Virus record (IMG/VR): IMGVR_UViG_3300020354_000001
Span: 1 to 38,789 of that record
From: a virus
DNA: 38,789 nt
Strand: one strand, 5' to 3'
Shown here: one piece after another, positions 30,710-38,610 of the stretch
Numbering within the stretch: the stretch's first letter is position 1
Layout: the number at the start of each line of letters is the position of its first letter
Notes under the pieces: generated by a model
What the model saw: only the letters and a program-made list of their open reading frames with translations
Databases searched by the model: none
Told to the model about the DNA's origin: nothing
Translations under genes and position numbers: made by a program

Positions 30710-30976
30710 CTACGCTCCCTTCGCTTTTGTGTGCGAGATAAAATCCTGCAGCAGCTCTTGCATGCGTTTTTCATCACCACAGTGGCCAAGCGTGTCATGC
30801 CATACCTTGGCAAGAACGAGCATTTCAAATAGCGACAGCAGACCATGGTCATTATCAAAATCACTCATGCCTGCAATCGACTCAAAGGCGTCGCAGGCTC
30901 TACGTAGCGCGTTTGTATTTCCGGCTACTGCGAGCATCACCCGCTGATTGACTGGCGACTGGTTTCCCATCCTCAA
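30710..30976 (-). CDS. Hypothetical protein (88 aa)
   Basis: ORF track. Start overlaps the upstream stop. Confidence 0.55.
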   Translation of the reverse strand: MRMGNQSPVNQRVMLAVAGNTNALRRACDAFESIAGMSDFDNDHGLLSLFEMLVLAKVWHDTLGHCGDEKRMQELLQDFISHTKAKGA

Positions 30977-31593
30977 CCCCCAATCTCAAAAGCGAGCATA
31001 CGCATACGCGGCAGCGGCCGACCGGTGCCCCGGCTGACCGCCGCAACTTCGCTCAATACCGCTTCCACCAGGTCGACGGCCTCTTTCATCATTCGATCTG
31101 CCTGTGCAGGGCAATCGTTGCGGTCATAACCGCCGTTGTGGGCTGGCTGGGAGTACTGCAGGAACTCGCCGAACTCCTGGCTGATGCGGTGAAGCTGGGA
31201 AGCCGCCCGCGCGAGATCGTCGACGGCTGAGAAGCGAGGCACCGGCACGTACAGCGAACCGGCCATGGCCATCAACTCCCGGCGCACCTCGATCTGGTAC
31301 TGCTCTGGCAACAGATTGACCCACGGCCACTTCCACGCCATCGGAAACGGCTGATCGCCGCGAATGATCCGGCCAACTTTCATCGAGACGCTGCGACGCC
31401 AGCGCATATACGCATCGGTGCTGCGCTCGACCTCGTCCCGGTCCACTTCCACCATCCCTTGGCGCTCCAGCGCTGGGATCAGGTGGATGGTCGAGAACGA
31501 CTCGATGGATTCACGGCTATTCGCGAACCAATCCAGGGTCGCTTTGATGATGACGTCGCACTCAGTGCGGGGCTTTGATGACATGACAACCAT
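30973..31593 (-). CDS. First early-left gene, possible 186 CII / CP76-family regulator
   Basis: 206 aa, divergent from the repressor gene. GSLYVPVPRFSAVDDLARAASQLHRISQEFGEF and IIRGDQPFPMAW resemble the CP76 family by eye. The ATG at 31584 has a better RBS than the one at 31593. Confidence 0.35.
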   Translation of the reverse strand: MVVMSSKPRTECDVIIKATLDWFANSRESIESFSTIHLIPALERQGMVEVDRDEVERSTDAYMRWRRSVSMKVGRIIRGDQPFPMAWKWPWVNLLPEQYQIEVRRELMAMAGSLYVPVPRFSAVDDLARAASQLHRISQEFGEFLQYSQPAHNGGYDRNDCPAQADRMMKEAVDLVEAVLSEVAAVSRGTGRPLPRMRMLAFEIGG

Positions 31594-31724
31594 CCTTTTT
31601 CGTTATCGTATTCAGCCCATCTTGTGTGGGCATCCCCACATTCTGCTTATTCGTAGAATTTAGTTCAATGCTTTCTGCTTATCAGACTTTGATTTTATGC
31701 AGATTCAGGGAGGAAAATTGCCGG

Positions 31725-32393
31725 ATGGATATTGGAAGCGCTATACGCCACCTCAGACGCCAGCAAGGGCTTACCTTGCAAGAGCTCTGCGACGCGATCG
31801 GTAATGACATGCAGACCGGCTATCTCTCACGCGTTGAGACGAATAAGCTGAATCCTAGCGTCTATACCGTGGCGGATATCGCCCGCGCGCTCGGCACCAC
31901 CGTCGATGATTTGCTGAAAGGTAGCAACACTTTTCATGCCTACAAGGAGACGAAAGCATGCCGAAAAATACCAGTTTTCCCGTTCGTTGCTGCAGCTAAT
32001 CCATACGCTGTAGGAATGTACCCACCTACGACTGCACTCACGACCATTCCATCGCCTGTAGACGTGCCATTGGGCAGCTTTGGATTGATTCTTGATGATG
32101 ACTCGATGCAGAGCAGCGAAGGTCTAAGCTTTTCGCAAGGTAGCGTGGTTATCTTCGCGCCTTATGACAAAAACCGACTAATACGCGAGAAACAAATCCA
32201 GCTTGGGCAATACGTTATTGTTCATTCCCAAAATGCCAGACCCGGCACCCCACCCCTATTTCGCCAGCTAGTTGCCGATGGCGCTGAACGCATGCTCCGA
32301 CCACGCAACTCTCGCTACCCCATCCGCCCGTTGCCGCCTGAGCCGGTTTTTGTAGGCTATGCAGTAGTCCAAATCCTAGACCTGACCTCATGA
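31725..32393 (+). CDS. Prophage repressor: XRE-type HTH plus S24 (LexA/cI-like) C-terminal domain
   Basis: ORF track 31626..32393. The ATG at 31725 has a GGGAGG RBS. The HTH is QGLTLQELCDAIGNDMQTGYLSRVETNK. The C-domain has PVFPFVAAANP, LDDDSMQ and LFRQLVADGAERMLRPRNSRYPIRP, which align with lambda cI / LexA. Confidence 0.85.
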   Translation: MDIGSAIRHLRRQQGLTLQELCDAIGNDMQTGYLSRVETNKLNPSVYTVADIARALGTTVDDLLKGSNTFHAYKETKACRKIPVFPFVAAANPYAVGMYPPTTALTTIPSPVDVPLGSFGLILDDDSMQSSEGLSFSQGSVVIFAPYDKNRLIREKQIQLGQYVIVHSQNARPGTPPLFRQLVADGAERMLRPRNSRYPIRPLPPEPVFVGYAVVQILDLTS

Positions 32394-32515
32394 TTCTACT
32401 CATGAGTGCATGAATATTTTACCTATCGGTAGATTATGGCGTAACATAATAGCGCAACTCGCTACGCGCGCCGCTATGCGTTATATTCAGAAGGTTTAGG
32501 GAAAGCAGAAACGAA

Positions 32516-32545
32516 CAACGGCCGGGTTTAGCGGCCCGGCCGTTG
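32516..32545. other. Strong hairpin in the repressor-repA spacer (11-bp stem CAACGGCCGGG / CCCGGCCGTTG)
   Basis: Arms at 32516-32526 and 32535-32545, with an 8-nt loop. On the minus strand it is followed by TTCGTTTCTGCTTTCC. Confidence 0.6.
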
Positions 32546-32549
32546 GAAG

Positions 32550-32567
32550 CTGTGAGACCACTCACAG
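32550..32567. other. Second hairpin, CTGTGAG-ACCA-CTCACAG
   Basis: 7-bp stem with a 4-nt loop. On the plus strand it is followed by AACATATATTTCC. Confidence 0.5.
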
Positions 32568-32700
32568 AACATATATTTCCTTCGCACGTTGTTGCCAAGC
32601 TGTTGATTTCAAAGAACTGTTAGCGGGCAGATCTATGAAAGCCGGACACAACTATAGGTAGTATATGGCGTGGTCTCGTAGCGTTCAACTTTCTGCTGAC

Positions 32701-32732
32701 GTTTGTACAAGAGTACAAACGTACAAAAGTAC
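32701..32732. promoter_or_regulatory. GTAC-box array E: four to five contiguous 8-bp units just upstream of repA, in opposite spacer polarity to arrays A-D
   Basis: Units are GTTTGTAC AAGAGTAC AAACGTAC AAAAGTAC, then a degenerate ACGGGAAC. Includes the inverted repeat GTTTGTAC-AAGA-GTACAAAC (32701-32720). Confidence 0.6.
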
Positions 32733-32752
32733 ACGGGAACGGAACGCACGCA

Positions 32753-35700
32753 ATGACGAATGTAGGACGCCAGGGATTAGCCAGTTTTTACGAAGAGCGT
32801 TTCCGCAGCGACCCCCACGCGCTGCTGGATTACTGCCACGGCGAGATCGCTCACATCGCCGCCGAGGTATCGGTCGACTGGGACAAGCTCGCCGGTGACC
32901 TGCGCCTCGATGACAAAAAGCATCGTGGAAAAATCCCCACGCTCGCTAAAGGCGAGCGTCATCGTGTTGCGGTCTTCGGCTCGCTCAAGCGCGCCCGTAA
33001 CGGCATCGAATACCCCCACATAAATTTCCACACCCTAGCCCAAGGCGGTTACAACGCTACCTGGTCAGGCTATGACGCACTGCTCGAACTCTACCGCCGC
33101 GAAGGCGGGCAAGCGGCTGACGCAAAGCACGCCGCCTGGCTTGCCAAACAAGAGGCACGGCGCGCGGAGCGCGCCGCGCGCATGGCAGAAGTGGAACGCC
33201 AGGAGCGCATCGAGCGCGAACGTCTTCAGGGCGAGCATGACGCCTATGAGCAGGCGTTCTATCGCGGTGGGGCACACTCCTTTGAATACGCACCGGGCAA
33301 GTTCGACACGGTCGAGCTGATCGGCGATGCGGACGGTACCGAGCCATATCTGCAGAACAAACAGATCGAGAGCATCGTCGATGCCGTGACGCTCAAACGC
33401 ATGCGCGACCGCCACGGCGAGTTCGTAGCGTTTGCCCTGCAGGGTATCGACGGCGACTATCGCGGCCTGCAGCGGCTATACCCCACGTTCAAAAAATACA
33501 CCGTAGCCGTGCGCGGCGGGCAGTTCGACGGCGCGCACCTGCTGATCGGCGACATCTACGCCAAGCGACTTTATAGCGTCGAGGGCTTCGCCACCGGCGC
33601 GAGTGTCTGGCTGGCTGAAACCGCTATCAAGAGTGCAGAGTGCGGCGTCATCGTTGCGATGAACGCTCAGAACCTGCCGAAAGTGCTGCGCGCCTACAAG
33701 CGCTGGGACGACAAGCTGCGCCCGGTGAACGCCGCCGATAACGACTGCTGGAAACCCATGGCTGGCAACGCTGGCCAGCTTCGCGCCCTGGAAGTGAAGC
33801 GCGAGCTGGAAGTGCGCAGCGTAATGCCGCGCTTTCATGAGCTGCTCGACGATGACGCGATCGCTGACGCGCTGGCCACCGGCAAAGGCCCAAACGACTG
33901 GAACGACATGCACTGCCAGTTTGGCCTGGACGTTACTGCCAAAGCCCTGCGCGCGCGTGCCAGCAAGGTCGAGGTCGAGACCGCCTTTTTCGATTACTGC
34001 CTGCAGCGCGTTCAGGCGTCCGGCAGCATGAACGTGATGGAAGAGGCGCTGAAAGCGGTCAACGCAGGCATGCAACTGGCACCGACTAAGTACACTGGCC
34101 GCGCCGTTTTCCGTACCGTCTGCGAAGCGATCCCGCAGGGTTTACCGTTTAACCGCCACCGCTTGCTCTCCCGCGTATGCTGGCTGGCGAAAAAGAAACT
34201 GCAGAGCGCCGCTGGCCTGCGCAGCTTCACCGCTGAAGGGCTCAATCGTCCCAACGTTCAGTATCACAAGGTGCGCGGCGTGCGCGCCGATCACGGCAAC
34301 ATCCTGCTGCCCGACCACATTCAAGACCTCGTCCAGTCGCTCAACGGCATGGTGATTGTTCGCGGCCCGATGGGAGCCGGTAAAACCGAACATCTGATTC
34401 GTCCATTGATGCAGGCGTCACCGAAAGCCGCTTACATCGCTCACCGCGTCTCGCTCGTCGGCGATGCCGCTTACCGCCTCAACACCACGCACTATCGCAA
34501 CGTGATCGCCGCCGAGATGCCCTACGTATCGCACCTCGCGTGCTGCGTAAACTCCATCACTCACCCCAAATTTCACAACGGCGACGGCCGCTCCTGGTTC
34601 ACGACCGTCGACACGCTCTGCATCGACGAAGCCAGCCAGGTGCTACGCCACATCGCCACCGGCCCGGTGGACCAGCCCACCCGCGTCATGGATGGCCTGG
34701 TCGAGGCCATGCAGTCCGCGCGCCTGGTATTGATGTGCGACGCCGACGCCAACGACTCACTGATCGAGCTATGCGAAATGGCGCGCCCCGGCGAGCCGAT
34801 TCACATTCTCGAAGTCGACCCTGCCAACGATCATATCCGCATCGATCACGCTGACCATGAGAGCGTGTGGCAGAAAGCGCTGGATGCTGCAGTTGCCGGT
34901 GAGCGCGTATTGATCGCCAACGACAGCGCCGAAAGTGCCAAAAAACTGGCGGTGATGATCGAGCAGCAGCGCCCGGACGCGAAAGTGCTGCTGGTTCACA
35001 AAGAGAGTAAAGCGAACCCGGATGCCGAGCGCTTCCTCGACCGTCCCAACGATGAGGCCGTCAATTATGACGTACTGATCTACAGCCCAGCGATCAGCTC
35101 CGGCGTGTCGATCACAACGCCCCATTTCACCCGGCATTTTGGTATTTTCAGCGGCCAGACGGTCAGCCCAAGCGACGCTATTCAGATGATGCGCCGCGAC
35201 CGCACCGCCCGCCACTACGTGGTGGGCATCGGCATATCCCGCGTGATGCGTGAGACCGACCGCGAAGCGCTATTCCGTGGCCTGATCGCCGCCGACGAGC
35301 TTAGCTGTGATTTTGACGAGACCGACACCGAGATCGTGCTGCGACGGACGAAAACGGTATTCGATGAGATGTTCCTTAGCTGCAGCACTGGCGATAACCA
35401 CGCGCGCAATGATTTTGCCAATCACCTGCTGCTCATGCTGATCGCGGACGGCTACCGCGTAAACCGCTTGGCCACCGATGAACAGGAGGTCAGCCAGAGC
35501 CGCTCAAACCGTAAAGAGGCGGGCATCCTGGTGCGCCACCGCCGCCTAGAGATCCTGTACAGCGTCGAGACGCCCGACGAAGAGCGTTTCGCCCGGCTCA
35601 ACCGCCAGGAGATCAAATCGGAGACCGAGCAAGCCGAGATCGACCGCCACCACATTGAACACCAGCTCTGCGTTCCAGAGATCGAAAACCACCACGTCGA

Positions 35701-36739
35701 TTTTTACGACGACCAGGGCATCCGCCACGTGACCGCCATCGAGCTGCTGCAGGCCACCGAGGCCCAGGCAGACGCTTACGACAAGGCGCAACGTAAAGCT
35801 CGCGTCACGCTGACCCGCCACCGCTGGAAAAAGCCCGTACACCGCCTGCTCAACCAGGTGTTTGAAACCCTGGGCGTCGACCCGCACACCGGCGAGGGCG
35901 AGTTCACCGCCGATCAGTGCCGCGCCGTGCGCGACACGCTGCTCGCTAATCAAGCCGCGATAGAGCTGTATAACGCGCTCCGGATCGGCCGCTACGTGAA
36001 CCCGAAAGCCTCGCCGAAATGCGCTACTACGTTCGTGAAGTCGATCATGGAGCGCCTTGGCCTCGCCCTGCACAAGCGCAAATCGGACGGCCGGAACGTG
36101 CTGTTTATCAGCACCGACTCATGGGAAGAGGTCATGTACTACGTGCGCCTGCGCGCCGAGCGCGGCGTTCACAGCCTGACCACCCACGAGGCCGCTAGCA
36201 TCCACCAGCCAATGCCCGCGCCGGTACGTGAAACCACCGACGAAGCCCACAACCACGCGGATTCCAGCGAAAGGGATACTTTGCGTGAAGGGGTAGCAGC
36301 AGCAGATGTAAGGTATCCCTCCCTGGGCGATAGCGAAAAGCTCTATGCCGCCGCGAAAGCCGCTTCAAGCCCTCTCAGTTTAGACACGACGCTGGTGGAA
36401 GCGGTGCAGGCGTTGCCTGACGAGATCCGGCAGGCGGTGGTGAACGGGCAGGTTAGCCCGGACGAGCTGGCCTGGGCGATCGGCTACGCATCCAGCATGC
36501 ACAAGCGGGGCAGCGCTGACGAGCTGCACTGCAACCCCGGCGTTATCAAGCGCCTGTATGACGCAGCCCGTGACCTGCCGCTAGCGCTGCCGCTGGTGGA
36601 TGTCGTTGCCCTGCTGCACCCGCAGATCCTGACCAGCATCAGCCAGTACAGCACCGACAACCTGCTGATGACGTTAGAATTTGCTGCTGAGTATATGCGA
36701 AAAAAGTTAACTGGATTGACCCCTGAACATGGGCAATAA
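32753..36739 (+). CDS. repA: Replication protein RepA (N15 RepA / P4 alpha-like primase-helicase)
   Basis: 1328 aa. A Toprim/primase-like region (VEGFATGASVWLAE...VIVAMNAQNL...NAADND) is followed by an NTPase with Walker A GPMGAGKTE and Walker B LCIDEASQ. Size and placement match N15 RepA. Confidence 0.88.
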   Translation: MTNVGRQGLASFYEERFRSDPHALLDYCHGEIAHIAAEVSVDWDKLAGDLRLDDKKHRGKIPTLAKGERHRVAVFGSLKRARNGIEYPHINFHTLAQGGYNATWSGYDALLELYRREGGQAADAKHAAWLAKQEARRAERAARMAEVERQERIERERLQGEHDAYEQAFYRGGAHSFEYAPGKFDTVELIGDADGTEPYLQNKQIESIVDAVTLKRMRDRHGEFVAFALQGIDGDYRGLQRLYPTFKKYTVAVRGGQFDGAHLLIGDIYAKRLYSVEGFATGASVWLAETAIKSAECGVIVAMNAQNLPKVLRAYKRWDDKLRPVNAADNDCWKPMAGNAGQLRALEVKRELEVRSVMPRFHELLDDDAIADALATGKGPNDWNDMHCQFGLDVTAKALRARASKVEVETAFFDYCLQRVQASGSMNVMEEALKAVNAGMQLAPTKYTGRAVFRTVCEAIPQGLPFNRHRLLSRVCWLAKKKLQSAAGLRSFTAEGLNRPNVQYHKVRGVRADHGNILLPDHIQDLVQSLNGMVIVRGPMGAGKTEHLIRPLMQASPKAAYIAHRVSLVGDAAYRLNTTHYRNVIAAEMPYVSHLACCVNSITHPKFHNGDGRSWFTTVDTLCIDEASQVLRHIATGPVDQPTRVMDGLVEAMQSARLVLMCDADANDSLIELCEMARPGEPIHILEVDPANDHIRIDHADHESVWQKALDAAVAGERVLIANDSAESAKKLAVMIEQQRPDAKVLLVHKESKANPDAERFLDRPNDEAVNYDVLIYSPAISSGVSITTPHFTRHFGIFSGQTVSPSDAIQMMRRDRTARHYVVGIGISRVMRETDREALFRGLIAADELSCDFDETDTEIVLRRTKTVFDEMFLSCSTGDNHARNDFANHLLLMLIADGYRVNRLATDEQEVSQSRSNRKEAGILVRHRRLEILYSVETPDEERFARLNRQEIKSETEQAEIDRHHIEHQLCVPEIENHHVDFYDDQGIRHVTAIELLQATEAQADAYDKAQRKARVTLTRHRWKKPVHRLLNQVFETLGVDPHTGEGEFTADQCRAVRDTLLANQAAIELYNALRIGRYVNPKASPKCATTFVKSIMERLGLALHKRKSDGRNVLFISTDSWEEVMYYVRLRAERGVHSLTTHEAASIHQPMPAPVRETTDEAHNHADSSERDTLREGVAAADVRYPSLGDSEKLYAAAKAASSPLSLDTTLVEAVQALPDEIRQAVVNGQVSPDELAWAIGYASSMHKRGSADELHCNPGVIKRLYDAARDLPLALPLVDVVALLHPQILTSISQYSTDNLLMTLEFAAEYMRKKLTGLTPEHGQ

Positions 36740-36759
36740 TACTGTATACTTGAACAGTA
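36740..36759. promoter_or_regulatory. LexA (SOS) box, gammaproteobacterial type CTGT-N8-ACAG
   Basis: TACTGTATACTTGAACAGTA matches 16 of 20 positions of TACTGTATATATATACAGTA. All four mismatches lie in the central spacer. It contains a -10-like TATACT (36745-36750) and sits 26 nt upstream of the ATG at 36785. Confidence 0.7.
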
Positions 36760-36784
36760 AATATAACCGTAGGGGGGTAACTTT

Positions 36785-37072
36785 ATGACCGATGAAACCG
36801 TGTATGACGTACAGGACCAACTGGAAGAGCGCTTGGCCAGGGCGAGTGCCTTGCTTCACCTGCTCTCGCAGTCAGATGGCGTCGATAGCCAGACGCTGCA
36901 AAGCGTGGCACAGGACGCCGCCGACCATGTGACCCAGGCGCAGTCGCTTTGCCAGACGCTGGCAGAGACGCACAAAAAAGGGCCAGCGCTTGAGCGCCAG
37001 CCCCTTCATGCCGCGTTATCGATGCACCTAGTGGGCGCGCGCTCCCCTCAGCGCCCACCCGCCGCTTTATAG
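36785..37072 (+). CDS. Small LexA-box-associated protein, candidate SOS-controlled antirepressor (Tum-like role)
   Basis: 95-aa ORF with an AGGGGGG RBS 7 nt upstream. The helical, acidic N-terminal ~60 aa look protein-like. The 3' end overlaps the convergent telN by 25 nt. No recognisable family. Confidence 0.5.
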   Translation: MTDETVYDVQDQLEERLARASALLHLLSQSDGVDSQTLQSVAQDAADHVTQAQSLCQTLAETHKKGPALERQPLHAALSMHLVGARSPQRPPAAL

Positions 37073-38610
37073 GCCGCCTTCATCGCTTCGATCCGGCCTG
37101 CCTGGTTGCCCACCCGCGCAACCTCCACCCCGTTGATTGAAGCCACCCCGACCCACTGGCCATCCCCTTGCTGGTGGGCGACCAGCCGGGGCTTCGCCTC
37201 GGCTACTTCCTTCGGCACTGCCGCCGCGACCTTGTCCAGATCGACGTTCGGCGTGTCGAGCGCCTCTCGCGCCAGCTCCAGGTACGCCTTGATGGCAGGG
37301 CGATAAACGCCCAGCTCTCGGCTGATCAGAGACTGCGTAATTTTCGCGTCTGGCTCCTGCTCGATCTGCGCTTTCACCCAGGCATGCACACGCGCCTGGG
37401 CGTCGCTGCTCTCAAGCTGCTCATGGCCGTCCAACGCCTGCAGCGCAGCGAGGCGGCTAGCGTGTTCGTGCTCCTCCTGGTCGGCTTGATCCGGCTCGTC
37501 GTAGACGATCTTAAAGGCGCGGTAGCTGCGCTGGGTGTCCATGTCCTCGTGCCCCAGCATCTCGCGCCAGAACACGTCCTCGGTGACTTTCTTCCAGCGC
37601 TTGTCGCGAGAGAAGTGCAGCTCAAACACCAGCCGCGCCCAGATCGCGCGGCTGTCCTTGAACACGCGCTCATCGTTGTTAAAGATCCGCTTAGTGAGCG
37701 TGTTGAGCGTCTTCGCCGTGCGGCGGTTCACATCGCTGTTGTCCATGCCCTGCAGCTCAGCAACTTCCGGCAGCGAGCGCAGCTCGTCCCACGCTTCGAT
37801 CACCAGGTCAGCCTTCACCAGGGTATAGATGTGGTAAGCCTCGCTATAGTCGACGCCGCCGCGCTTTTTCGCTTGGCCGCTGAACTCCAGCTCATACTCG
37901 CCCACTTTGCTGATTCGGCCGGTCTTCAGCACCTCGATCGCGCGCCGCCCGGTGGCCAACGCCAGCCCCAGCGCTAGGTAACTGAAAAAGCCGCGATACT
38001 CGCCATCGACCACCCTCTCTCGGTTACTCAGCAGCTCGTAAACCGTCTCCATCAACCAGTGGTAGTTGATCTCGACCGTGTTCACCGCGCGCTCTTCCAG
38101 CGTCTCGCTGGCCTCTTCAGCCAGCGTGCTTTTCTGTGCAGAGCTCAACGTCAGGTGGCGCATGATTTCATGGTCGAGCTTCATCGCCCGGATGTCCTCA
38201 TAAGCGTCGTCATCGTTGCGGATCTGGTCGAGCAGCTCGCGGTGGGCCATACGAATGGCGCTGATATCGGTCAGCTTGCCGAGCGCTTTCAGCTTACTGG
38301 CATAAGCCGGGTAGCGGCTGGCCAGCCGCTCGATCTGTTGGTCGAAGCTGTGATGACGCCAGTTCTGTGCAGTCACCGCCTTGCGCGCTTCTGTCATGTA
38401 GCGGCGAAAGGTCGTGACCGCGATCCGCTCAGAATCCTTGCGGCGCTTGTCATCATGCAGGCGCGTTTTGAAGCTACGTGCCAGCCGCGCCATGCGCTTG
38501 GTTTTCTCTTTACGTGGCATCTCATCATCGGCGTCGATCTCTTTGATCTCGCTGAGCAACCACTCTATCAATTCCGCTAAATCAACCTTTCTACGTGACT
38601 CACCGCTCAT
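37048..38610 (-). CDS. telN: Protelomerase (telomere resolvase, TelN/TelK family)
   Basis: ORF track 37048..38679 (TTG). The ATG at 38610 has an RBS. Blocks match N15 TelN: FSGQAKKRGG, VFKDSRAIWARLVFE, and DVFWREMLGHEDMDTQRSYRAFKI, where SY corresponds to the catalytic Tyr context. Confidence 0.95.
   Translation of the reverse strand: MSGESRRKVDLAELIEWLLSEIKEIDADDEMPRKEKTKRMARLARSFKTRLHDDKRRKDSERIAVTTFRRYMTEARKAVTAQNWRHHSFDQQIERLASRYPAYASKLKALGKLTDISAIRMAHRELLDQIRNDDDAYEDIRAMKLDHEIMRHLTLSSAQKSTLAEEASETLEERAVNTVEINYHWLMETVYELLSNRERVVDGEYRGFFSYLALGLALATGRRAIEVLKTGRISKVGEYELEFSGQAKKRGGVDYSEAYHIYTLVKADLVIEAWDELRSLPEVAELQGMDNSDVNRRTAKTLNTLTKRIFNNDERVFKDSRAIWARLVFELHFSRDKRWKKVTEDVFWREMLGHEDMDTQRSYRAFKIVYDEPDQADQEEHEHASRLAALQALDGHEQLESSDAQARVHAWVKAQIEQEPDAKITQSLISRELGVYRPAIKAYLELAREALDTPNVDLDKVAAAVPKEVAEAKPRLVAHQQGDGQWVGVASINGVEVARVGNQAGRIEAMKAAYKAAGGR

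Follow-up and report, generated by a model that had tools for sequence, protein, structure and literature searches.

A cI/LexA-type repressor with altered self-cleavage residues and a candidate LexA-controlled antirepressor in a phiHAP-1-type telomere prophage

Introduction

How can a prophage couple its induction to DNA damage when the repressor that keeps it silent seems to have lost the means of cutting itself? This question is raised by a locus of a virus-derived stretch of 38,789 nucleotides (IMG/VR record IMGVR_UViG_3300020354_000001, positions 1 to 38,789; the whole stretch that was analysed is called the window), in which a gene at 31725-32393 on the forward strand encodes a prophage repressor of 222 amino acids. 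In an initial annotation, made from the sequence by eye, this protein was described as a cI/LexA-type repressor with both autocleavage hallmarks altered, and it was proposed that it may be inactivated by an antirepressor, as in the Gifsy prophages and coliphage 186. Here we report that the repressor lacks two of the three features of self-cleavage at the sequence level, and that a small open reading frame (ORF) behind a conserved LexA (SOS) box, between the replication gene repA and the protelomerase gene telN, is a candidate for the antirepressor.

The element itself is essentially phage phiHAP-1, as far as its sequence tells. Window positions 31000-37200 are 95.2% identical at the nucleotide level to Halomonas phage phiHAP-1 (EU399241 / NC_010342; genus Hapunavirus) over the whole 6.2 kb (megablast), and the order annotated in phiHAP-1, namely a CII-like gene (-), the repressor HAPgp37 (+), repA (+), the 95-amino acid hypothetical ORF35 (+) and telN (-), is encoded in full. 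Because of this gene order and the match of TelN to ResT-TelK_cat (E 3e-30), the window is assigned to the linear-plasmid ('telomere') prophages of the phiHAP-1 type.

Results

The repressor gene was identified by a match to HTH_3, by 98.6% identity of its product to phiHAP-1 HAPgp37, which is annotated as 'prophage repressor', by a profile match and by Foldseek. Translation of the ORF at 31725-32393 yields the N-terminus MDIGSAIRHL. Since M-x-I-G is the N-terminus in every repressor homologue, the ATG at 31725 is favoured over the longer, upstream start given in GenBank. In the protein, residues 1-66 make up the HTH_3 N-terminal domain and residues 113-222 a C-terminal domain of the S24 fold; the two are joined by a divergent linker (67-112). 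The N-terminal domain matches Pfam HTH_3 with E 3.2e-10 and 40.3 bits (gathering threshold 23), and in PHROG the repressor matches phrog_4, 'transcriptional repressor' (E 8e-17). Pfam Peptidase_S24 (PF00717) scored 17.9 bits on the repressor, under its gathering threshold of 23.3, and a single-sequence phmmer search against the PDB returned helix-turn-helix (HTH) proteins only (DdrO, ClgR, 434 repressor and SinR) and no S24 match; profile and structure methods were therefore needed to see the S24 relationship. With an AlphaFold2 model of the repressor (predicted local distance difference test score, pLDDT, 71; alignment of 6 sequences), the best Foldseek matches were the lambda repressor structures 3bdn, 8gmu, 2ho0 and 1f39 (E 1e-8 to 1e-6; TMt ~0.68-0.70), and LexA structures were also among the best. 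An HMMER profile of the family matched the C-terminal domain chains 2ho0 and 1f39 of lambda cI with E ~1e-7 (1.4e-7). By profile and model, the C-terminal domain is predicted to have the beta-fold of LexA and lambda cI, and the designation as a cI/LexA-type repressor is borne out by HTH_3, the profile match and Foldseek.

To locate the residues of self-cleavage, the repressor was aligned by MAFFT with E. coli LexA, lambda cI, P22 C2, mEp213 cI, VP882 cI and N15 CB and, in a second set, with 82 distant representatives described below. The strings on which the by-eye alignment of the initial annotation was built are all present at the residue numbers it gave: PVFPFVAAANP at residues 83-93, LDDDSMQ at 123-129 and PLFRQLVADGAERMLRPRNSRYPIRP at 177-202. 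Ser127 (codon TCG, 32103-32105, +) aligns with the nucleophile, which is Ser119 in LexA, Ser149 in lambda cI and Ser130 in VP882 cI. The position of the general base (Lys156 in LexA, Lys192 in lambda cI, Lys172 in VP882 cI) is taken by Arg180 (codon CGC, 32262-32264, +), and that of the scissile Ala-Gly of LexA, lambda cI and VP882 cI by Ala90-Ala91 (codons GCA GCT, 31992-31997, +). The HMMER profile pairs ldddSmq of the family with GNSMT of lambda cI, lfRql with FKKL, and the linker PvfkfedAAnpf with PVFSHVQAGM. Both MAFFT sets, the HMMER profile and AlphaFold2/Foldseek thus concur in all three assignments. The correspondences made by eye are confirmed by the multiple and hidden Markov model (HMM) alignments that had been suggested as a check, neither of which places a Lys or an Ala-Gly at the catalytic positions.

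The nearest characterised homologue, VP882 cI, is 31% identical to the window repressor overall and 47% identical in the N-terminal domain, and has A91-G92, S130 and K172 at exactly the aligned positions. It was described that the exchanges G92D, S130A and K172A each abolish RecA*-stimulated autoproteolysis of VP882 cI in vitro, the Lys mutant being K172A and not a Lys-to-Arg exchange (bioRxiv 10.1101/2019.12.16.877910). No invariant Lys that might serve as an alternative general base was found anywhere in the C-terminal domain of the clade. Judged by its residues, the repressor has lost two of the three self-cleavage features, the Lys and the Ala-Gly, with only the Ser remaining, and we infer that it is, with good probability, not cleaved upon activation of RecA.

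Relatives of the repressor were drawn from marine metagenomes, IMG/VR contigs and two Halomonas genomes by database and locus searches, and three alleles were distinguished. Allele 1 is the window/phiHAP-1 type. Allele 2 is 42-46% identical to the window repressor (loci L009, L013 and L016-L021), and allele 3 is 37% identical to it (L059:1973-2617, L060:629-1273 and L061:1969-2613) and carries the motifs TDTSMN and IFRRL without an Ala-Gly. Throughout the three alleles, which comprise >11 distinct sequences, the Ser is kept in D-[DT]-S-M-[QN] and the Lys position is Arg in F-R-[QER]-[LIM]. The P1' Gly is absent from every member of the clade, the dipeptide being AA, GS, AY, AL, AD, AF or HH. 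The alteration of both hallmarks is therefore not a peculiarity of one sequence: the Arg and the missing Ala-Gly are fixed over three alleles. Among the alleles, identity amounts to 56-71% in the N-terminal domain, 35-47% in the C-terminal domain and only 14-35% in the linker. A linker that is the least conserved segment is expected if the region of the cleavage site is no longer under selection.

The alleles also bear on the proposal that the repressor gene belongs to an exchangeable immunity module. Backbones in which RepA and TelN are 90-92% identical to those of the window carry a repressor that is only 37% identical, which indicates replacement of the immunity gene. The divergence of the repressors sits in the linker and the C-terminal domain and not mainly in the DNA-binding domain. 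The G+C content of the repressor gene is 52.6% vs 60.5% for the window, and among segments of equal size the gene ranks in the lowest 4.7%. The intergenic regions on either side have 41-47% and the neighbouring genes 61%. The repressor gene and its two flanking intergenic regions thus form a low-GC island. The low G+C content of the gene and its surroundings, estimated by eye in the initial annotation, is upheld by this computation, and the island and the allele replacement both support the module. As a separate observation, allele 3 may correspond to phage HMP1.

A LexA box, TACTGTATACTTGAACAGTA, is predicted at 36740-36759 on the forward strand and is the sole exact CTGT-N8-ACAG in the window. 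It starts one base past the stop codon of repA (36739/36740), the primase/helicase-type plasmid-prophage replication gene encoded at 32753-36739 (+). The box agrees at 16/20 positions with the consensus TACTGTATATATATACAGTA, which is that of E. coli, the specificity of Halomonas LexA being assumed. A sigma-70-like promoter, TTGACC-16-AATACT, was recognised at 36716-36743 (+); its -10 element overlaps the box and its -35-like TTG(A/C)CC is conserved in relatives. The ATG of the small ORF (36785-37072, +) follows 25 nt behind the box and is preceded by AGGGGGG. By chance, 0.39 exact matches to CTGT-N8-ACAG are expected in the window and at least one is found in 35% of shuffles. With so high a chance rate the lone match is not significant, and its significance comes from conservation at the same position in relatives.

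Such conservation was found in 10/10 related loci that span the repA-telN interval (the window, L001, L009, L018, L019, L020, L021, L059, L060 and L061; all with Arg-type repressors). Each has a single exact SOS box, always in this place; behind it come a Shine-Dalgarno sequence of the GGGAGG type and a homologue of the small ORF with 89-96 amino acids. When the interval was aligned as DNA, the columns without variation were those of the Shine-Dalgarno sequence, of the ATG and of the box (ATACTGTAT..T...ACAG), and the remainder averaged 66% identity; in phiHAP-1 the box is identical to that of the window. The LexA box at 36740, which the initial annotation had taken to fit an antirepressor model, is thus present at 36740-36759, overlaps a promoter-like site and is conserved in 10 loci.

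In VP882, Valp1, HY01 and K242, all four of which have canonical AG/Ser/Lys repressors, no exact SOS box was detected in the 12-19.5 kb around repA and telN. In N15, a single exact SOS box was found in the 22-kb right arm inspected, at L058:5565-5580 (N15 39564-39579), between genes 47 and 48. Directly downstream of it lies an ORF of 75-79 amino acids (L058:5593-5832; N15 39592-39831), which matches phrog_10889, 'anti-repressor', and is missing from the RefSeq feature table. This ORF is presumably antC. Since box and small ORF are found in 10/10 Arg-type loci and are absent from 4/4 canonical ones, and since the N15 box stands upstream of an antC-like ORF, the arrangement of SOS box plus small ORF co-occurs with non-canonical repressors among these telomere phages.

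The small ORF behind the box encodes 95 amino acids. Its product is 97% identical to phiHAP-1 HAPgp35, a 'hypothetical protein', and belongs to a protein family that is conserved in databases. The ratio of nonsynonymous to synonymous substitution rates (dN/dS) of residues 1-66 is 0.07-0.09 (vs L059 and L061). In the AlphaFold2 model, for which the alignment consisted of database sequences only, a two-helix hairpin is predicted (H2-29 and H35-65), with a block-mean pLDDT of 85-90 over residues 11-60. The conserved family, the purifying selection and the predicted hairpin together argue that the small ORF is a real gene. Its tail, residues 67-95, is disordered in the model (pLDDT <50) and almost neutral (dN/dS ~0.6-0.7). 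The functional part of the protein is therefore probably the predicted N-terminal hairpin of ~66 residues.

The tail is encoded where the small ORF runs across the terminator and the 3' end of telN. The protelomerase gene telN (37048-38610, -), which marks the element as a telomere prophage, is convergent with repA and the small ORF. Its intrinsic terminator (36974-37007, -), consisting of a 14-bp GC-rich stem and UUUUUU, lies within the 3' coding tail, and this overlap probably explains the conserved 'KKGP...QP' motif there. With repA ending at 36739 and telN at 37048, the small ORF occupies the slot between these convergent genes that is the qtip locus in VP882. The gap between repA and the small ORF measures 45 nt only and therefore contains no transcription-factor gene; the SOS box is the only recognisable control element in it.

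The state of the general-base position was also followed in S24 relatives at large. A phmmer scan of 1.84 billion representatives with the repressor C-terminal domain as query, followed by realignment with MAFFT, left 82 usable proteins. In this sample, which is biased toward lookalikes of an Arg-type query and consists of cluster representatives that are not phylogenetically independent, the position is Lys in 60 proteins and Arg in 22. The Ala-Gly is kept in 44/60 of the Lys class and in 1/20 alignable members of the Arg class (Fisher p = 5e-8; 2.5e-7 without the window's own clade), and the Ser is lost in 2/60 and 7/22, respectively (Fisher p 0.001). Replacement of the Lys by Arg is therefore a recurrent state, and one that is accompanied by decay of the remaining catalytic apparatus. 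The single exception in the Arg class, P0026, keeps both the Ala-Gly and the Ser. Its N-terminal domain resembles that of the hapunavirus repressors, and it could be an intermediate.

Some further features surround the repressor gene. The gene at 30973-31593 (-), divergent from the repressor, is labelled 'prophage antirepressor' (HAPgp38) in GenBank EU399241. HAPgp38 was rejected as an antirepressor, as it matches phrog_4834, a CII-like transcriptional activator, with E 8e-66. The 131-nt intergenic region between this CII-like gene and the repressor holds no cro-sized ORF, whereas in the Vibrio telomere phages Valp1 and K242 a cro gene is followed by a cII-like gene. A candidate operator repeat, TTCTGCTTAT, is present in the same intergenic region in two copies, 32 nt apart (31641-31650 and 31673-31682). 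The region that separates the repressor from repA contains, as a candidate regulatory element, the 20-nt sequence CTATnGGTAGnnTATGGCGT in direct repetition (32423-32442 and 32652-32671), and its two copies enclose a perfect 11-bp hairpin at 32516-32545. A candidate palindrome, ACGTTTGTAC-N4-GTACAAACGT, lies at 32699-32722, 30 nt upstream of the repA ATG. For marine telomere phages, an absence of obvious operators was reported (Hammerl et al., 2015).

Discussion

Our analysis leads to a mechanism in which the lysogeny repressor does not cleave itself and DNA damage is sensed through a LexA-controlled antirepressor encoded by the small ORF; we regard this chain as a whole as moderately probable. 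What sequences and models show directly are the residue states, the fold, the conservation of box, promoter, Shine-Dalgarno sequence and small ORF, the purifying selection on this ORF and the co-occurrence of the arrangement with Arg-type repressors; the resistance to cleavage, the binding of LexA in Halomonas and the antirepressor activity are inferred. The repressor would keep lysogeny and, its self-cleavage apparatus being degenerate, would most likely stay uncut at physiological pH when RecA is active. Host LexA would sit on the SOS box at 36740-36759, over the promoter of the small ORF, and keep the latter repressed. Upon DNA damage, RecA*-induced cleavage of LexA would derepress the small ORF at 36785-37072. 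The predicted helical-hairpin product would then accumulate, bind the repressor and inactivate it, probably by way of the N-terminal domain, which is conserved and is the target of Qtip in VP882, and lytic transcription would be released. Such a target would also account for the lack of co-variation between the small ORF and the repressor alleles. Mitomycin C induces HMP1, a phiHAP-1-like phage whose repressor region is reported to be different from that of phiHAP-1 (PMC9170930), and an SOS-linked route to lysis therefore exists in this phage group. The interpretation put forward in the initial annotation is supported by the computational tests that were available.

Several points weigh against this mechanism. 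On the side of the repressor, the nucleophile Ser does not vary among the three alleles, whereas one would expect a dead active site to lose it over time, and 7/22 of the other Arg-class proteins have indeed lost it. Lys to Arg is a conservative change, and autodigestion of LexA K156R is reportedly still seen at very high pH. The AlphaFold2 model of the repressor is only moderate, and the geometry of Ser and Arg lies outside its reach. On the side of the control region, it is assumed, by extension from other Gammaproteobacteria, that Halomonas LexA recognises an SOS box of the E. coli type. No terminator-like structure was found between the repA stop and the small ORF (36739-36785). In the plasmid-prophage state, repA transcription is expected to run into the small ORF unless it is blocked by LexA on the box; read-through could thus express the small ORF in the lysogen and must be tolerated or blocked.

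The small ORF itself adds to these points. Its product has no detectable similarity to Qtip and no Pfam or PHROG family, the AntC families phrog_6301 and phrog_10889 included. In a Foldseek search of the model against the PDB nothing scored under E 0.6, and the matches were generic helical hairpins, among them the phage anti-activator Aqs1 (E 1.6, not significant). The small ORF was also considered as a homologue of N15 AntC, and this was rejected: BLASTP gave E 0.033 over 36 amino acids, and hhalign of two family alignments a probability of 0.4% with E 0.13. Co-variation of repressor and antirepressor was not seen, as the small ORF diverges with the RepA/TelN backbone and not with the repressor allele. 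The product is probably an antirepressor, a role assigned to it entirely from context, and by sequence comparison the candidate belongs to a new family.

These points give room to other explanations. The small ORF could be under LexA control and nevertheless serve another purpose, so that, with a non-cleavable repressor, induction would take a different route, such as a host protease or another phage factor, and the small protein would be an SOS-induced accessory, for instance a modulator of RepA/TelN, of RecA or of cell division. Its lack of homology to any known antirepressor would be in line with this, as would its generic fold, its co-divergence with repA and telN instead of the repressor allele, and its location between, and overlapping, the genes of replication and telomere resolution. 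Yet it is the only gene behind an exact SOS box in the 38.8-kb window, while relatives are inducible by mitomycin C, and it occupies the exact locus at which the repressor-inactivating small proteins of telomere phages, Qtip, smORF72 and smORF63, are encoded (PMC10432266). It is moreover present with Arg-type repressors and absent with canonical ones, and the missing co-variation is explained by the conservation across alleles of the repressor N-terminal domain, which is the target of Qtip in VP882. We consider an accessory function unlikely, though worth keeping in mind. Rather improbable, in our view, is a repressor that is still an SOS-responsive self-cleaver, in which the Ser127/Arg180 dyad, or the Ser with another base, cuts a non-canonical site of the linker and the small ORF is an accessory or redundant input, like Ant for P22 C2 and Qtip for VP882 cI. 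The invariance of the Ser in D-[DT]-S-M-[QN] over three alleles at 37-46% identity would fit such a protein, the S24 fold is intact, Arg is chemically near Lys, and P22 C2 and VP882 cI are examples of repressors that are both cleavable and targeted by an antirepressor. What speaks against it is that the P1' Gly is not conserved and that the linker is the most variable segment (14-35% identity), that cleavage of VP882 cI is blocked by G92D alone, and that the C-terminal domain is without a conserved Lys. Family-wide, Arg goes together with loss of the Ala-Gly and frequent loss of the Ser, a signature of decay and not of an alternative active site.

The CTGT-N8-ACAG motif might also not be a functional LexA site in the Halomonas host and be conserved as part of the small-ORF promoter or as a 3' element of repA. 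A single exact match to the core arises by chance in ~35% of shuffled windows, the TATA-rich segment of the motif could be a -10 element, and host LexA specificity rests on an assumption. Both palindromic half-sites and the flanking TA are invariant amid surroundings that are ~66% conserved, the motif matches the E. coli consensus at 16/20 positions, and it is the sole such site in each of the 10 loci. These observations make a non-LexA role of the motif very improbable.

The proposed mechanism, a non-cleaving repressor with a LexA-controlled antirepressor, has known parallels. Its logic is that of N15 CB/AntC, 186 CI/Tum and Gifsy, in all of which a non-cleaving repressor is combined with a LexA-repressed antirepressor. 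The analogy to the Gifsy prophages and 186, drawn at the outset, is thus correct in its regulatory logic, but the telomere phage N15 with CB/AntC is the closer precedent. The CI of 186 is not known to be an S24 protein. Both Gifsy (GfoA/GftA) and 186 (CI/Tum) combine a repressor that does not cleave itself with a LexA-repressed antirepressor gene outside the immunity region, and a C-terminal S24-like domain is missing altogether from the short Gifsy repressors (PMC3121763), whereas the window repressor has the S24 fold.

N15 is a telomere phage like the window, with the same order of repressor and then repA, and its repressor has a cI-like architecture and is non-proteolytic. It was described that N15 cI is not proteolysed in ciprofloxacin-treated cells (PMC10432266), that neither the cleavage site nor the Ser nor the Lys is present in CB of N15 and phiKO2 (PMC4997575), and that CB is paired with the LexA-controlled antirepressor AntC (Mardanov and Ravin, 2007, as cited in PMC3121763 and PMC4488713). 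The two systems differ in that Ser and Lys are both lost from N15 CB, whereas the window repressor keeps the Ser and has an Arg, and in that antC is located elsewhere in the genome while the small ORF of the window lies between repA and telN; the two small proteins are not detectably homologous.

VP882 belongs to the same genus, Hapunavirus, and has vqmA-Phi and qtip in the interval on which repA and telN converge. Qtip, like the proteins encoded by the small ORFs of phages 72 and 63, inactivates cI without proteolysis, and expression of these small ORFs depends on a phage transcription factor encoded next to them (PMC10432266). The small ORF of VP882 is switched on by the phage activator VqmA-Phi independently of SOS, whereas that of the window has no transcription-factor gene beside it and host LexA as its would-be repressor. 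VP882 cI has a functional A91-G92/S130/K172 set and is cleaved with RecA*, while the window repressor has Ala-Ala/Ser/Arg. With LexA, lambda cI and P22 C2 the window repressor shares the architecture, the S24 fold, the Ser in G/D-x-S-M, F-x-x-L and L-x-P-x-N-x-x-Y-P; it differs from them in having an Arg, no Ala-Gly and a sub-threshold Pfam S24 score, where they have the Lys and the Ala-Gly.

The phiHAP-1 record describes the same element (repressor 98.6% and small ORF 97% identical, box identical) and gives no more than 'prophage repressor' for gp37 and 'hypothetical protein' for gp35. In the literature searched, which did not extend to the original 2008 genome paper, no description of the Arg/Ala-Ala state or of the LexA box of phiHAP-1 was found. 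Telomere-phage repressors were recently split into predicted autoproteolytic and non-cleavable ones, with phiHAP-1 in the set (Supplementary Table 1 and Fig. 1A of Silpe et al., 2023; PMC10432266). The text of that article, as far as it was available, gives no per-phage call for phiHAP-1 and makes no mention of a LexA-controlled small ORF in phiHAP-1. Beyond the initial annotation, the present work adds the identity with phiHAP-1, the N15 precedent and the pinpointing of the antirepressor candidate at 36785-37072. What characterises the present case, by sequence and model, is the combination of a complete S24 fold and a kept Ser with a conservative Lys-to-Arg change, together with a candidate of a new family that stands in the Qtip slot and would be wired to host LexA and not to a phage activator.

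The findings have a bearing on annotation. A label 'LexA family / S24 repressor' or a match to Pfam S24 should not be taken to mean that a protein is RecA-cleavable before its Lys and Ala-Gly columns have been inspected; about one quarter of the distant relatives recovered carry an Arg, and almost none of these keeps the Ala-Gly. More speculatively, an Arg with a lost Ala-Gly may mark a wide class of S24 'pseudo-peptidase' repressors, for the most part overlooked so far, in which SOS sensing was ceded to small antirepressors under the control of LexA or of other regulators. The repA-telN slot of hapunaviruses would then hold either a LexA-controlled small ORF together with a dead repressor or a transcription-factor-controlled small ORF together with a live one. 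We regard this generalisation as doubtful. A more radical version builds on the invariance of the Ser and supposes that a conditional cleavage or acyl-enzyme activity may persist in the Ser/Arg domain and be triggered by the small protein and not by RecA*.

To a specialist, the proposed mechanism will look tidy and testable, and not surprising. If true, it explains how induction can be coupled to DNA damage without autoproteolysis of the repressor in marine telomere phages of the phiHAP-1 type, which are abundant in ocean viromes (PMC9170930). It would also place two arrangements side by side within one genus and at the same locus: in VP882, a cleavable cI with a small antirepressor controlled by quorum sensing, and in phiHAP-1, a degenerate cI with a small ORF under predicted LexA control. 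This pair would allow the migration of the SOS input from the active site of a repressor to a separate module to be studied.

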